A stretch of DNA of 36,662 nt. It comes from a virus (Duplodnaviria > Heunggongvirae > Uroviricota > Caudoviricetes). The stretch spans positions 1-36,662 of the IMG/VR virus record IMGVR_UViG_2713896792_000001. One strand, written 5' to 3'. Positions 30,194-36,633 of this stretch are shown here, piece by piece; position 1 is the first letter of the stretch, and every line of letters starts with the position of its first letter. The translations under genes were made by a program, and so were the position numbers. The notes beneath the pieces are model-generated. The model had not been told where the DNA came from and did not search any database. It saw nothing but the letters and a program-made list of their open reading frames with translations.

Positions 30194-30400
30194 ATGCTGA
30201 ACCTCGATTGCGTTCCTATCTCAACTTATTGCAAAGAAACTGGCGAAACTCCTGAAGCAATAAACAAACGTGTACAGCGCGGTGTTTGGCGTGAAGGTGT
30301 TCAGGTTTTAAAGGTTGAAGGCGTTAAGGAGAGGTGGATTGATCTTAGTGAGGTTGCAAAATGGGCCAGACAAAATTGCTCAAACTACCGCGCGGCGTAA
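30194..30400 (+). CDS. excisionase (Xis-like)
   Basis: 68 aa from Met5 of track ORF (SD GGAGAA); winged-helix-like pattern and position immediately upstream of and overlapping int. Confidence 0.5.
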   Translation: MLNLDCVPISTYCKETGETPEAINKRVQRGVWREGVQVLKVEGVKERWIDLSEVAKWARQNCSNYRAA

Positions 30401-31557
30401 CAATCAGAAAACACCGTCAGGGAGAAACGATCAATATAACTTTCACCTACAAAGGAGTTAAATGTCGTGAGCCACTTTCCAATCTGGAAGTAACACCAAA
30501 GAACATTAAATACGCCGAGCGCACACTCGGCGAAATTCATAATAAGATCGAAAGGGGAACATTCATTTATGCGGAATATTTTCCCCGTTCTGCTCGTTTG
30601 AAAATTTTTGGTAATGCTGCTGCAGGCAAAACGGTAAAAATGTACCTGGACGAATACCTTGAAATCTGCGAAACGAGAAAACTTTCACCATCTACGATTG
30701 GTGGTTATAAAAAATGCCGTAGTGCGTTAGCCTCACTCCACATTTGCCCTGCAAGTGAATTAACACCAGCAATCCTGAAAGCGTGGATTCAAAGCCAGAA
30801 AACGACCTTAAAAACAATTCGCAACCAGTTATCTTTCCTGCGGTCAGCACTTGATGAAGCCGTAACCGATGGGGTACTTCAAATTAACCCCGTATCGTTG
30901 GTAACTGCTTCGCGCTACCAAAGTGATAAGTCAGAAGCAGAAAGCAGCTACGTGGTTGATCCGCTATCACCAACAGAAGTTGATGCATTACTAGCAGCAG
31001 CCGGAAACAAACAATGGGAGAATCTGTTCCGGTTCGCTATACATACAGGCCTGCGTAGTTCTGAATTATGTGCCCTTCGATGGCGTGATATCGACTTTGT
31101 TGGAAAAACTGCCCATGTCCAGAGCGCAAGTGTTGTCGGTGTTATCAAAGGGACAAAGACAAAAGCAGGTACTCGTAAAGTTGAACTGACAGAAGAGGCA
31201 ATGTTGGCGCTGATAAATCAGAAGCCATTTACATTCATGAAGGATGCTACTGTCTTTGAAGACCCAAAGACCAATAAGCCTTGGGCAAGTGCTGATGCAA
31301 TCAGGAAAAAAGCATGGGTGCCAACATTACGGAAAGCAGGTATTCGATACAGAAATCCATATCAAACTAGGCATACATTCGCCACCAGCCATATCAGCCG
31401 AGGAGCAAATCTGTTTTGGCTTGCAGCTCAAATGGGGCATAAAGGGCCGGAAATGCTTTTCAGGCATTATGGTTCGTATCTCGTAGACTATGATGGCAAG
31501 ACAGCTTGTAAGGACCAAGTATCAAAAAATCCGGAGAACATGAAAATTGAGAAGTAA
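30361..31557 (+). CDS. tyrosine integrase (lambda-type, with arm-binding N-domain)
   Basis: 398-aa ORF; C-terminal catalytic region RHTFATSHISRGANLFWLAAQMGHKGPEMLFRHYGSY (R, H-x-x-R, Y); overlaps xis 3' end. Confidence 0.8.
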   Translation: MGQTKLLKLPRGVTIRKHRQGETINITFTYKGVKCREPLSNLEVTPKNIKYAERTLGEIHNKIERGTFIYAEYFPRSARLKIFGNAAAGKTVKMYLDEYLEICETRKLSPSTIGGYKKCRSALASLHICPASELTPAILKAWIQSQKTTLKTIRNQLSFLRSALDEAVTDGVLQINPVSLVTASRYQSDKSEAESSYVVDPLSPTEVDALLAAAGNKQWENLFRFAIHTGLRSSELCALRWRDIDFVGKTAHVQSASVVGVIKGTKTKAGTRKVELTEEAMLALINQKPFTFMKDATVFEDPKTNKPWASADAIRKKAWVPTLRKAGIRYRNPYQTRHTFATSHISRGANLFWLAAQMGHKGPEMLFRHYGSYLVDYDGKTACKDQVSKNPENMKIEK

Positions 31558-31665
31558 AACGCCCGATAGCACTAGCCCCCCTTCGCAAAACAGTAAAGCT
31601 TACAAGAATGTTAGCAGGATGATGAGGATAGTGTACAATGGTTTTAGTGTGCATTAAATGCAAAG

Positions 31666-31700
31666 ATTTGACGTTTTTTGTCAAATTTGTGCTATAAAAT
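31666..31700 (+). promoter_or_regulatory. candidate promoter/operator of the AbiL-like operon
   Basis: Palindrome ATTTGAC-N7-GTCAAAT (31666-31686) and extended -10-like TGcTATAAA (31690-31698) about 50 bp upstream of the ATPase ATG. Confidence 0.3.
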
Positions 31701-31747
31701 CACTTTTAGTGGTTTTTAAGCTATGGGAAGTTAAAAGGGTATAAATT

Positions 31748-33013
31748 ATGTTGATTGAGTTTACAGTACAAAACTATAAATCTATTTCAGAGAAACAAAC
31801 ACTGAGTTTAGTTGCATCAAAACTTAACGATTTGCCTAATAATCTGTTCAGTATTGATGAACCTAAATCTCTTGAATTGCTTAAAAGTGCTGTGATTTAT
31901 GGCCCTAATGCTGCCGGAAAATCAAACATTATTAACGCTATTACAACTATGGCTGAACTTATTGTCCGGTCTGCTACAGGTTATAAAAGTGGTGATAAAC
32001 TTGATATCACGCCTTTTAGACTAGACTCAAAGAAGATTAATCAACCATCTGAATTTGAAATTAACTTTATTTCCGAAGGCATCAGATACCAGTATGGTTT
32101 TTCTGCAACAGAAGATTTTATTCACGACGAATGGTTATTTGCATTCCCCAAAGGCAGACCACAAAAATGGTTTTTACGTCTATGGGATGAAGAAAAACAA
32201 ACCCATGAATGGGAGTTGGGGCCATCGTTGACAGGAGAAAAACAAACATGGTTGAAATCAACCAGGCCTAATGCGCTCTTTCTTTCTACAGCGGTACAAT
32301 TAAACAGTGTACAACTAAAACCTGTATACGATTGGTTTTATTACAAAGTTAAATTTACTGAATTAACAGGTTGGGATAGTGATTACAGTGCAAAGCAATG
32401 CTTAAATGATAAGAAAGATGAGATTCTCAATTTTTTAAAAGCTGCCGATGTAGGTATTGATGACATTCATGTAACAAAAGAAAAATTCAATCCCAATGCT
32501 CTTCCTGATGATATGCCTGCAGCCATCAAGGAACTAGTGATTAAGAATATGCAAGGCAAGGAAGAATATGTCATTAAAACACTTCATAATAATGAGGATG
32601 GAGAGCCAATTCCATTCGATTTAAAAGATGAATCGCATGGAACTAGAAAAATCTTTAGTTTCGCGGGTCCCTTATCACATTCACTCGAGACAGGAAACAT
32701 CCTGTTTATTGATGAATTAAATGATAACTTACACCCCAAATTAGTTGAGTTTATTGTAGGTTTATTTCACGATAAAAATATCAATAAGAATGGTGCCCAG
32801 TTAATCTTTACAACTCATGAGACGTCTATTTTAAATCAAGATGTTTTCAGACGAGATCAGATTTGGTTTGTAGAAAAAGACAATTCAAAGCAAACAAATC
32901 TTTTCCCACTTACGGATTTTAGTCCAAGAAAAGGAAGGGAGAATTTAGAAGCTTCTTATCTTGACGGTAGATATGGGGCTTTACCACTCATTGGGAAATG
33001 GGAGAGATATTAA
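31748..33013 (+). CDS. AAA_21/ABC-type ATPase, AbiLi-like
   Basis: 421 aa; Walker A GPNAAGKSN, Walker B ILFIDELNDN, H-loop FTTHE; AT-rich gene; SD AAGGG. Confidence 0.7.
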   Translation: MLIEFTVQNYKSISEKQTLSLVASKLNDLPNNLFSIDEPKSLELLKSAVIYGPNAAGKSNIINAITTMAELIVRSATGYKSGDKLDITPFRLDSKKINQPSEFEINFISEGIRYQYGFSATEDFIHDEWLFAFPKGRPQKWFLRLWDEEKQTHEWELGPSLTGEKQTWLKSTRPNALFLSTAVQLNSVQLKPVYDWFYYKVKFTELTGWDSDYSAKQCLNDKKDEILNFLKAADVGIDDIHVTKEKFNPNALPDDMPAAIKELVIKNMQGKEEYVIKTLHNNEDGEPIPFDLKDESHGTRKIFSFAGPLSHSLETGNILFIDELNDNLHPKLVEFIVGLFHDKNINKNGAQLIFTTHETSILNQDVFRRDQIWFVEKDNSKQTNLFPLTDFSPRKGRENLEASYLDGRYGALPLIGKWERY

Positions 33014-33699
33014 TGGGAAGCGAAGATCTGTTCAAAAAAAGAAAGGCTCGGCGTAATAATGAATTCAAACGAGTTAGTAAAGCACGAGCTCAAATGAAGA
33101 AAATTCTTATCGTCTGTGAGGGAGAGAAGACTGAGCCCGCATATTTTACAGATTTTATAAAACATTGCCGTATAAGCACGGCAAGCATAGTTGAGATTTC
33201 TGGAGAGTGCGGCTCAAGCCCTATGAATGTGGTATCTTGGGCAAAAGAAAAATATAATACGGAAAAAAAAAGGAGCGACCCTTATGATAAGGTTTATTGT
33301 GTCTTTGATAGAGACGCTCACCCTAACTATGATGAAGCTCTTAGCAGGATTAATTCCTTAAATCCAAAAGGGATTTTTGTTGCTATAACTTCCATACCAT
33401 GTTTCGAGTACTGGCTGATACTACATTTTGGATACACCCGAAAATCATTTTCACCTCAGAAAGGCAAAAGTGAAGGCGCACAAATGCTAGCTGAGTTAAA
33501 AAAATACATGCCAGATTATGAGAAAAAGGCATCAGGTGTATTTAATAAATTGCAAGATCGGCTCGATACGGCATTAATCAATGCTAAAAGAGTCGAAGAT
33601 GCCGCCAAAAAAGACGGTTCGATAAATCCTTCAACTAAAGTTGGCGCTTTGATTACAGATCTAATTAACATTCGTGATGACTTTGAAAATGAGAAGTAA
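33013..33699 (+). CDS. RloB-like (TOPRIM-like) protein, AbiLii-like
   Basis: Start at Met6 of track ORF (TAATG overlap, SD GGGAGAG); N-terminal ILIVCEGEKTEPAYF motif characteristic of RloB-family proteins (recollection). Confidence 0.6.
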   Translation: MGSEDLFKKRKARRNNEFKRVSKARAQMKKILIVCEGEKTEPAYFTDFIKHCRISTASIVEISGECGSSPMNVVSWAKEKYNTEKKRSDPYDKVYCVFDRDAHPNYDEALSRINSLNPKGIFVAITSIPCFEYWLILHFGYTRKSFSPQKGKSEGAQMLAELKKYMPDYEKKASGVFNKLQDRLDTALINAKRVEDAAKKDGSINPSTKVGALITDLINIRDDFENEK

Positions 33700-33824
33700 A
33701 AATAACATGTCATGATGTAGCGACGGCAGCATGTTTAAGTTCAAATGGCAAAGTGTACGCGAAGTATACGCGGATCAAAAACAATAGAAAAAACGTATAT
33801 TTTACAAAAGATTATATAAATTTT

Positions 33825-33855
33825 GACGCGGGTTCAACTCCCGCCAGCTCCACCA
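33825..33855 (+). other. ssrA: attachment-site core: 3'-terminal 31 nt of the tmRNA gene ssrA (fragment only)
   Basis: GACGCGGGTTCAACTCCCGCCAGCTCCACCA is identical to the 3' end of E. coli ssrA as I recall it; the upstream sequence is not ssrA. Confidence 0.6.
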
Positions 33856-33901
33856 AAATTCTCCATCGGTGATTACCAGAGTCATCCGATGAAGTCCTAA
33901 G

Positions 33902-33935
33902 AGCCCGCACGGCGCAAGCCCTGCGGGCTTTTTTG
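33902..33935 (+). terminator. rho-independent terminator (native ssrA terminator)
   Basis: AGCCCGCA ... TGCGGGCT stem followed by TTTTTT. Confidence 0.55.
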
Positions 33936-34060: not shown

Positions 34061-35302
34061 ATGGCAAGACAAACCAAACCTCTATCCGTTAAAGAAATAG
34101 AATCAGCCAAACCCAAGGAGGCGGACTACGTTCTCTATGATGGCGATGGCCTTGAGCTACTCATTAAATCCAGCGGGAGTAAAATCTGGCAGTTTCGCTA
34201 CATTCGCCCTGTCACCAAGAAACGAGCAAAGAAGAGCATAGGCTCCTACCCGTCAGTTACCCTTGCCGATGCCAGAAACTACCGTGCAGAGTCCCGCTCA
34301 CTACTGGCTAAACAGATCGATCCGCAGGAACATCAGCAAGAACAATTGCGCAGTTCGCTGGAAGCCAAAACCAACACTTTCCAACTCGTAGCTGAACGTT
34401 GGTGGAATGTGAAGAAAGCCAGTGTGACAGAGGACTATGCGGAAGATATCTGGCGCTCTCTTGAAAGAGACGTCTTTCCTGCGATTGGCGACGTTAGCGT
34501 TACAGATATTAAAGCTCATACACTGGTTCAGGCCGTACAACCGGTTCAGGCCAGAGGAGCACTGGAAACTGTTCGTCGCCTGTGCCAACGTATTAATGAG
34601 GTCATGATCTATGCCCAGAACACAGGGCTGATTGATGCTGTTCCCAGCGTTAATATCGGTAAAGCCTTCGAGAAGCCTCAGAAAAAGAACATGCCCAGCA
34701 TTCGACCGGATCAGCTACCTCAGTTAATGCAGACGATGCGAACAGCCAGCATTAGCCTTTCCACACGCTGCCTGTTCATGTGGCAACTTCTTACTATTAC
34801 CCGCCCTGCCGAAGCGGCTGAAGCTCTCTGGGAAGAGGTAGACATAGAAGCGCGAGAGTGGAAGATTCCTGCAGCACGCATGAAAATGAACCGCGACCAT
34901 ACTGTTCCATTGTCAGATGAAGCAATTGCGATACTAGAGATGATGAAGCCGTTAAGTGGAAATCGAGAATTTATCTTTCCCAGCCGCATCAAGCCAAACC
35001 AGCCGATGAACAGTCAGACCGTAAACGCATCGCTAAAACGCGCAGGTTTTGGTGGGGTGCTCGTTTCACACGGCCTGCGATCTATCGCCAGTACAGCCCT
35101 TAATGAGCAGGGATTTCCACCTGATGTTATTGAGGCTGCACTTGCTCATGTGGATAAGAATGAGGTTCGTCGTGCGTATAACCGTAGTGATTATCTTGAG
35201 CAGCGACGGCCTATGATGCAGTGGTGGGCTGATTTTGTGATGGCTGCAGATCACGGTAGTATGATTGAAGGAGGGATAAAGGCAATGCGGTTAGTTGGAT
35301 GA
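34061..35302 (+). CDS. intA: P4-family tyrosine integrase, CP4-57 IntA-like
   Basis: 413-aa ORF directly downstream of the ssrA 3' end, as intA is in E. coli K-12; N-terminus MARQTKPL..YDGDGLELLIKSSGSK.WQFRY and C-terminus VSHGLRSIASTALNEQGFPPDVIEAALAH match IntA as recalled. Confidence 0.8.
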   Translation: MARQTKPLSVKEIESAKPKEADYVLYDGDGLELLIKSSGSKIWQFRYIRPVTKKRAKKSIGSYPSVTLADARNYRAESRSLLAKQIDPQEHQQEQLRSSLEAKTNTFQLVAERWWNVKKASVTEDYAEDIWRSLERDVFPAIGDVSVTDIKAHTLVQAVQPVQARGALETVRRLCQRINEVMIYAQNTGLIDAVPSVNIGKAFEKPQKKNMPSIRPDQLPQLMQTMRTASISLSTRCLFMWQLLTITRPAEAAEALWEEVDIEAREWKIPAARMKMNRDHTVPLSDEAIAILEMMKPLSGNREFIFPSRIKPNQPMNSQTVNASLKRAGFGGVLVSHGLRSIASTALNEQGFPPDVIEAALAHVDKNEVRRAYNRSDYLEQRRPMMQWWADFVMAADHGSMIEGGIKAMRLVG

Positions 35303-35512: not shown

Positions 35513-35776
35513 ATGAAGAAGCGTTTTTCCGACGAACAGATCATCAGTATTCTCCGCGAAGCCGAAGCTGGGGTACCCGCCCGTGAACTCTGCCGCAAGC
35601 ATGCCATTTCCGATGCCACGTTTTACACCTGGCGTAAGAAGTATGGCGGTATGGAGGTGCCTGAAGTTAAGCGCCTGAAGTCGCTTGAGGAAGAGAACGC
35701 CAGACTCAAGAAGCTGCTTGCCGAAGCCATGCTGGATAAAGAGGCGCTTCAGGTGGCTCTTGGGCGAAAGTACTGA
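35513..35776 (+). CDS. IS3-family transposase OrfA (HTH)
   Basis: 87 aa; HTH plus leucine-zipper-like C-terminus ([26 protein letters not shown]). Confidence 0.8.
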
Positions 35777-35799: not shown

Positions 35800-36633
35800 G
35801 TGATGTTGATGTGTGATGCGACCGGTCTGTCGCAACGTCGTGCCTGCAGGCTTACAGGTTTATCCCTGTCGACCTGCCGCTATGAGGCTCACCGTCCGGC
35901 TGCTGATGCGCATTTATCAGGGCGCATCACTGAGCTGGCACTGGAGCGCAGGCGTTTTGGCTACCGTCGTATTTGGCAGTTGCTGCGCCGTGAAGGGCTT
36001 CATGTTAATCATAAGCGCGTGTACCGGCTTTATCACCTCAGTGGCCTGGGCGTAAAACGCAGAAGACGTCGTAAAGGGCTGGCAACAGAACGTCTGCCGC
36101 TGCTCCGTCCGGCGGCGCCCAATCTGACCTGGTCGATGGATTTCGTCATGGACGCACTTTCCACCGGTCGCAGGATCAAGTGTCTTACCTGCGTCGATGA
36201 TTTCACAAAGGAATGCCTGACGGTCACTGTTGCCTTTGGGATTTCAGGCGTTCAGGTCACGCGTATTCTGGACAGCATTGCACTGTTTCGAGGCTATCCG
36301 GCGACGATAAGAACTGACCAGGGGCCGGAGTTCACTTGCCGTGCACTGGATCAATGGGCCTTTGAGCATGGTGTTGAGTTGCGCTTAATCCAGCCGGGCA
36401 AGCCAACGCAGAACGGATTTATTGAGAGCTTTAACGGACGATTTCGCGATGAATGTTTGAATGAGCACTGGTTCAGCGATATCGTTCATGCCAGGAAAAT
36501 TATTAATGACTGGCGGCAGGATTATAACGAATGCCGCCCGCACTCCACGCTGAATTATCAGACACCGTCTGAATTTGCAGCGGGCTGGAGAAAGGGTCAT
36601 TCTGAGAATGAAGATTCCGACGTTACTAACTGA
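35800..36633 (+). CDS. IS3-family transposase OrfB (DDE/rve catalytic domain)
   Basis: 277 aa in the -1 frame relative to orfA; that frame is open from 35740, so an OrfAB fusion by -1 frameshifting is possible; DDE-type motifs ([23 protein letters not shown]). Confidence 0.8.

Follow-up and report, generated by a model that had tools for sequence, protein, structure and literature searches.

The lactococcal abortive infection (Abi) system AbiL was described in 1999 and is found by current defence tools, and its trigger, substrate and structure are still unsolved (PMC13064643). It is a proven two-gene system in which both genes are needed and which acts after phage transcription (PMC13064643), and it has been placed among the systems that combine an ABC ATPase with a TOPRIM protein, where it is grouped together with PARIS (PMC11464382). 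Here, we describe a two-gene cassette of this kind in a 36,662-nucleotide (nt) stretch of Caudoviricetes DNA (IMG/VR record IMGVR_UViG_2713896792_000001, positions 1 to 36,662); this whole stretch is what we call the window, and positions are counted from its first letter. We consider it likely that the pair is an AbiL/RloAB anti-phage defence cassette, with an ATPase as sensor and a nuclease as effector, carried as a moron, or non-essential cargo, by a lambdoid prophage integrated in ssrA. Its two open reading frames (ORFs) are co-oriented and adjacent:

31748–33013, plus strand: ORF A, abiLi/rloA-like ABC ATPase of 421 amino acids (aa), with AAA_21 and AbiLi matches
33013–33699, plus strand: ORF B, abiLii/rloB-like protein of 228 aa, a putative TOPRIM-type nuclease, with RloB and AbiLii matches

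Comparison with described systems

AbiL of the Lactococcus lactis plasmid pND861 has the same layout, a two-gene operon in which an AAA_21 ABC ATPase of ~420–450 aa is followed by an RloB-family protein of ~200–230 aa. That system is plasmid-borne, whereas ours lies on a prophage in a Gram-negative host, and the two were compared through PADLOC profiles; identity between ORF B and Firmicute RloB proteins is probably about 30%. The RloA and RloB proteins of Campylobacter jejuni, encoded at type I restriction–modification (R-M) loci, belong to the same two Pfam families but sit within an hsd locus, whereas the pair in the window stands alone in a prophage. A Cellvibrio homologue that is 57% identical to ORF A bears the name 'RloA protein'.

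PARIS, which consists of the ABC ATPase AriA and the DUF4435 TOPRIM transfer RNA (tRNA) nuclease AriB, resembles the cassette in pairing a separate ATPase with a small nuclease, of the TOPRIM class in PARIS and putatively so here, and in its residence in phage and satellite hotspots. We rejected an identification as PARIS: ORF B has neither an AriB match in PADLOC nor a DUF4435 match in Pfam, even at E ≤ 10. ORF A does match PARIS AriA (2e-37), far below its AbiLi match, and this adds nothing specific because its residues, profile length and score are all those of the Pfam AAA_21 match. The class 1 OLD protein P2 Old fuses the ABC ATPase and TOPRIM activities that the cassette would split over two proteins, and no sequence similarity between P2 Old and the cassette was detected. 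The PADLOC candidate PDC-M12, a pair of A and B components, is matched by ORF A (PDC-M12A, 2.3e-21) and by the N-terminal Glu/DxD region of ORF B (PDC-M12B, ~1e-4), but these matches are much weaker than those to AbiL, and PDC-M12 is itself an uncharacterised candidate.

Identity of the cassette

An earlier note, made from the sequence alone, had read the two ORFs as an AbiL-like ATPase–RloB pair from the motifs GPNAAGKSN (Walker A), FIDELNDN (Walker B) and CEGEKTEPAYF (RloB-type), and had called for Pfam and PADLOC searches. The Walker motifs are found in ORF A (residues 52–60 and 320–327) and CEGEKTEPAYF in ORF B (residues 35–45), and the searches, now run, uphold all three assignments. In Pfam, ORF A matches AAA_21 (1.3e-38) and ORF B matches RloB (1e-39, model positions 1–195 of 195), both well above the curated cut-offs. 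In PADLOC, AbiLi is the best match of ORF A (4.2e-101, 336 bits, the top of 74 matches) and AbiLii that of ORF B (4.9e-29). With an AbiLi component, an AbiLii component and an adjacent, co-oriented operon, the cassette has what PADLOC and DefenseFinder use to define AbiL and, judged by these profile matches, is an AbiL system by PADLOC's operational definition. NCBIfam has no specific model for ORF A or ORF B, and in PHROGs both fall into families of 'unknown function'.

Two further features that the note had pointed out are also there. The stop codon of ORF A overlaps the start of ORF B in the string TAATG at 33011–33015, and the cassette is AT-rich, with a GC content of 0.32–0.385 over 31400–33800 versus 0.44–0.50 in the flanks. 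The start of ORF B is the ATG at 33013: MGSEDLF is the invariant opening of its homologues, whose alignments span the 228 aa completely (100%); an in-frame ATG upstream at 32998, which appears in the ORF tool listing, is unused by homologues.

The pair already carries the RefSeq labels 'AAA family ATPase' and 'RloB family protein', and E. coli genomes have been scored for AbiL in a study of defence-system co-occurrence (bioRxiv 10.1101/2022.08.21.504612). The cassette is therefore a further member of a known family, and neither it nor its location would surprise a specialist. Its added value is a tractable E. coli example, a family-wide promoter palindrome and a site of cargo exchange at which several cargoes are unmatched. 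As an intact, compact AbiL that has a promoter of its own and resides on a lambdoid prophage of E. coli, it would bring the family into the best genetic system, with its phage panels, escape-mutant selection and tRNA assays.

The ATPase and the RloB protein

Both proteins have intact catalytic motifs. Across 41 homologues of ORF A, residues G52–K58, the signature-like S296xG298T299, D322–E323 and H357 of the H-loop are invariant; ORF A has the Walker A, signature-like motif, Walker B and H-loop of the ABC ATPases in OLD-like ABC ATPase + TOPRIM systems. Its AlphaFold (AF2) model has a predicted local distance difference test (pLDDT) score of 87.7 and is most similar in fold to Rad50/SMC heads, the retron I-A ATPase and Septu PtuA (E 1e-10 to 1e-12).

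In ORF B, E36, G37, E41, Y44, P70, D99, D101, H103, E132, L137, H138, Y169 and K171 are invariant among 48 homologues of 33–66% identity. The model of ORF B (pLDDT 83.1) has a four-stranded alpha/beta core in which E36 closes strand 1 and D99-x-D101 closes strand 3, an arrangement that we take to be the TOPRIM domain layout of established family descriptions. Searches for a sequence link from ORF B to TOPRIM or OLD proteins gave no signal by phmmer and two profile searches of PDB sequences, nor in Pfam at E ≤ 10 for 41 family members, nor when two RloB alignments were compared by hhalign with P2 Old and the PD-Lambda-5 ATPase–TOPRIM protein. Foldseek of the RloB model against the PDB returned nothing better than 2.5e-3, all generic alpha/beta folds, and no RloB-family protein with a solved structure came up in sequence searches of the PDB. 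Matches of ORF B to designed helical proteins arise from the C-terminal helices and were dismissed as spurious. Separately, four RloB homologues in metagenome-assembled or draft genomes (L023, L033, L055 and L059) have an in-frame stop inside the tblastn match and may be pseudogenes or assembly errors.

Exchange of cargo at the int-attR junction

The cassette lies in the part of a 45-kilobase (kb) lambdoid prophage of the yfdPQR type, inserted in ssrA, that the window covers. Its immediate surroundings are:

30361–31557, plus strand: tyrosine integrase that adjoins the cassette on its left and belongs to the lambdoid (yfdPQR-type) prophage (PHROG integrase, 2.6e-61)
33825–33856, plus strand: attR core, in which the 3' end of ssrA (transfer-messenger RNA, tmRNA) recurs as a displaced copy, with 32-nt identity and a partial tmRNA match

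E. coli strain 1506D011 is 100% identical over the cassette and has an intact tmRNA gene adjoining smpB at the far prophage end. The 32 nt at 33825–33856 are identical to the 3' end of this intact ssrA, and Rfam gives a partial tmRNA match ending at 33855. This 32-nt core is common to attL and attR. The order is therefore integrase, cassette, attR.

The cassette is rare, being found in 15 of 5,426 complete E. coli genomes (≥98% query coverage, 99.8–100% identity), and the integrase in ~396 E. coli genomes at 92–99% identity. Homology of the integrase ends at nt 1112–1152 of its 1,197, that is, 45–85 nt before the stop codon (31473–31557 in the window), and the last 15–28 codons therefore seem to be swapped together with the cargo. 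We sampled four strains that carry the same integrase for alternative cargo. Strain 2014C-3655 (L002:6226-8938) has a 577-aa ABC ATPase with TOPRIM-type matches and a Dam-like methylase (PD-Lambda-5_B, 5.8e-124), and so a validated defence system alternates with AbiL at the junction. Strain S6 has a lone 259-aa protein there (L003:6215-6994); CFT073 has two genes, for 127-aa and 271-aa proteins (L004:6187-7375, minus strand); and S88 has three, for a 199-aa, a STAS-like 108-aa and a 303-aa protein (L005:6165-8035, minus strand). PADLOC had no match for any of the six cargo proteins from S6, CFT073 and S88, which are candidates for defence or other moron functions; at least three alternative junction cargoes without a PADLOC match offer inexpensive leads to possible new defence systems.

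In this family of ssrA-integrating prophages, the int-attR junction acts as a site where cargo is swapped. The earlier note had placed the cassette between integrase and attachment site and called that junction a defence hotspot; the integrase and the 32-nt ssrA-identical attR on its two sides bear out the position, and the four other cargo types in the same interval, including the PD-Lambda-5-like system, bear out the hotspot. As expected of a moron at an int-att junction, the cassette is part of an excisable element, lies between int and the att core, and varies from one related prophage to another.

Distribution of the family

The ORF A family comprises more than 7,500 proteins at E ≤ 0.001, with a typical identity of 56–60% across Gammaproteobacteria, and at least 596 homologue loci lie in species-representative genomes of many phyla. 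The RloB gene directly follows the ATPase gene in 83 of the 88 loci that we examined.

The pair moves as a unit between settings. In Enterobacter and Cronobacter, lambdoid prophages that otherwise differ carry pairs with 84–85% identical ATPases at this same int-ssrA junction. In Klebsiella P2-like prophages and phage ST13-OXA48phi12.1, a pair with a 61% identical ATPase lies between GpA/DinI and the portal gene, the interval that old and tin occupy in P2 itself and that is an established, validated defence hotspot (PMC9122126, PMC13586616). An Edwardsiella prophage has a homologous pair close to its lysis genes, and Providencia prophages have one amid their tail genes; in Cellvibrio a pair is flanked by Wadjet and a type III R-M system, and in Methylomarinum a pair neighbours BREX. 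This distribution is as expected for a self-contained defence cassette.

Mobilizable plasmids of 3.7–5.3 kb in E. coli, Klebsiella and Salmonella (for example, NZ_AP027671.1 and NZ_CP024043.1) carry an annotated 'RloB family protein' beside an 'ATP-binding protein'. These RloB proteins are 31–34% identical to that of the window, and the AbiL-like pair appears to be the main cargo of the plasmids.

A conserved palindrome in the promoter region

Three features precede ORF A:

31611–31639, plus strand: promoter-like site TTAGCA-17-TACAAT, from a consensus scan
31666–31686, no strand: operator-like palindrome ATTTGAC-N7-GTCAAAT, with the core TGAC-N7-GTCA at 31669–31683
31690–31698, plus strand: extended -10-like TGcTATAAA, read from the sequence, directly downstream of the palindrome

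A promoter-like region with a palindrome had already been noticed when the DNA was first read, and its conservation upstream of homologous operons across genera shows that the palindrome is not a chance one. Upstream of the E. coli, Enterobacter, Cronobacter and Klebsiella cassettes, which span four genera and two phage types, TTTGAC-N4-TTTGTCA does not vary, and it is kept in Klebsiella although the flank of that cassette is otherwise unrelated. The block TAGCAG...GGTGTACAATGGT at the promoter-like site is shared with the cassettes of Enterobacter and Cronobacter but is not conserved in that of Klebsiella. Of 80 homologous operons, 13 have TGCTAT upstream, where an expected fraction of 0.022 would give ~2 loci.

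We generalised the site to TGxy-N7-y'x'CA, a perfect palindrome, and counted it between -110 and -16 from the start codon of 85 non-redundant loci. It is present in 25 of the 85, and other spacers from N3 to N11 give 0–5 loci each; with one mismatch allowed, N7 is found in 60 loci versus 20–34 for the other spacers. A first count, over -150 to -1, had found the site in 25 of 81 loci, against 3.8 predicted from the within-locus background. The half-sites fall into several types (TGAC in 10 sites, TGCA in 7, TGAA in 4, TGCG in 2 and TGCT in 2), and a change in one half is always matched in the other. In the more distant loci, the 3' half-site runs directly into the -10 element (TGCA|ATAAT) and a TTGAct -35 element lies just upstream, ~50 nt before the ATG; in the window, the palindrome is just upstream of TGcTATAAA and downstream of the promoter-like site at 31611–31639. 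In most homologues the palindrome is inside the promoter spacer and is therefore not transcribed. We set aside an RNA hairpin as its explanation on this ground and because the leader (31646–31760) folds not clearly more stably than its shuffles (z = -1.7).

The palindrome is most likely an operator by which the cassette limits its own expression, and to our knowledge this family-wide promoter palindrome has not been pointed out before. No second copy was found elsewhere in the window, for example in the immunity region, which makes control by the prophage repressor unlikely. The co-changing half-sites and the preference for N7 suggest autoregulation by one of the two proteins, and an operator bound by a dimeric protein that moves with the cassette is the simplest interpretation. 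In its most specific form, the idea would be that the 15-bp TGxy-N7-y'x'CA, in or against the promoter, is the cassette's own operator, its half-sites having co-changed as the family spread across phyla, and that ORF A, ORF B or their complex is a sequence-specific DNA-binding autorepressor, since no host factor could travel with the cassette; we regard this form as doubtful. If it is true, nuclease expression would follow the assembly state of the sensor complex, much like expression in type II toxin–antitoxin (TA) modules. The conserved palindrome offers a concrete, testable handle on how toxic modules are restrained.

Proposed function and alternative explanations

We picture the AbiL/RloAB defence cassette as working in the following way. 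In the lysogen, it would be transcribed from its own promoter, and the two genes would be translationally coupled, with products expected to form a complex. Within that complex, the Rad50/SMC-like ABC ATPase would act as a sensor and switch that holds the small TOPRIM-like nuclease inactive. Infection by another phage would change the state of the ATPase and free or activate the nuclease, which would then cut an essential nucleic acid, so that the infected cell stops growing and the infection is aborted. By analogy with PARIS AriB and P2 Old, which are tRNA nucleases (PMC11464382; bioRxiv 10.64898/2026.07.10.737580), we tentatively suggest host tRNA as the likeliest of the possible targets. 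Speaking for the defence model as a whole are the family assignment, the invariant ATPase motifs with a Rad50/PtuA-like fold, the conserved gene pairing, the recurrence in defence hotspots and the alternative PD-Lambda-5-like cargo. Published work also fits: lactococcal AbiL requires both genes (PMC13064643), AbiLii of Fusobacterium nucleatum is a toxin in E. coli (PMC3985639), and AAA ATPase + TOPRIM_OLD pairs act as TA pairs (PMC10440598).

Several points weigh against this proposal. The tie to the lactococcal prototype comes from PADLOC profiles. Neither of the two candidates for the proposed autoregulator, ORF A and ORF B, has a recognisable DNA-binding domain. In the single published test, AbiLi of F. 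nucleatum in trans did not neutralise the toxic AbiLii (PMC3985639); a simple picture of the ATPase as antitoxin may therefore be wrong.

The effector might instead cut phage or host DNA, a variant that differs from the proposed defence mechanism in substrate alone and matches what had long been supposed for OLD and Gabija nucleases. TOPRIM domains classically act on DNA, and OLD and GajA, the closest structural matches, belong with nucleases that cut DNA in vitro (bioRxiv 10.64898/2026.07.10.737580). However, in the two relatives whose mechanism is solved, one with separate and one with fused ABC and TOPRIM parts, the in vivo substrate is tRNA (PMC11464382; bioRxiv 10.64898/2026.07.10.737580), and the action of lactococcal AbiL after phage transcription (PMC13064643) also speaks against DNA, which we think a less than even possibility, slightly below tRNA.

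A greater departure would be a TA-type addiction module, with RloB as toxin and the ATPase as antitoxin, that stabilises the prophage or the array of islands at ssrA and has little anti-phage role. The bicistronic, overlapping operon and the probable palindromic operator in its promoter, a feature typical of autoregulated TA modules, would fit such a module, as would the toxicity of F. nucleatum AbiLii (PMC3985639), the TA-like behaviour of AAA ATPase + TOPRIM_OLD pairs in NetFlax assays (PMC10440598) and the annotated AbiL-like cargo of the 3.7–5.3-kb plasmids. Yet the cassette recurs in known defence hotspots and defence islands, the prototype confers phage resistance (PMC13064643), and AbiLi failed to neutralise AbiLii in trans (PMC3985639); TA behaviour is, moreover, compatible with defence. 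We consider an addiction module with little anti-phage role improbable. The name Rlo, for restriction-linked ORF, recalls that RloA and RloB were first described within Campylobacter hsd loci (cited in PMC10440598 and PMC13064643), and the pair could be an accessory that backs up or regulates type I R-M systems; one homologue adjoins type III R-M genes, and one Enterobacter locus has hsd genes past the att site. Those hsd genes, however, lie outside the prophage, the window has no R-M genes beside the pair, and the pair stands alone in prophages at four different insertion positions, which makes an R-M accessory very improbable.

Other features of the integration site

The stretch from the RloB stop codon to the att core has one further feature:

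33753–33772, plus strand: direct repeat GTGTACGCG / GTATACGCG, read from the sequence

The two copies are possibly integrase arm-binding sites, and TGCACGTAAAGTGCAC-like repeats are found at the corresponding position in Enterobacter and Cronobacter. Apart from the partial tmRNA, Rfam gave just sub-threshold noise in the window. A match to the Salmonella IsrM small RNA at 33846–33934, which spans the ssrA terminator region, reaches 32 bits, where the gathering score is 376, and probably carries no meaning.

Directly after attR lies a second integrase of the CP4-57 IntA type (34061–35302, 413 aa), followed by orfA and orfB of an IS3-family element (35513–35776 and 35800–36633); the CP4-57-type integrase and the IS3 element past attR make this a tandem array of islands at ssrA. 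Downstream of this second integrase, the DNA differs from that of strain 1506D011. On the attL side, beside the intact ssrA and outside the window (L093:19418-22864), genes for a GIY-YIG protein, a helix–turn–helix (HTH) and ImmA/IrrE pair and a BRO-N protein form what looks like a second cluster of accessory genes at the opposite att junction.

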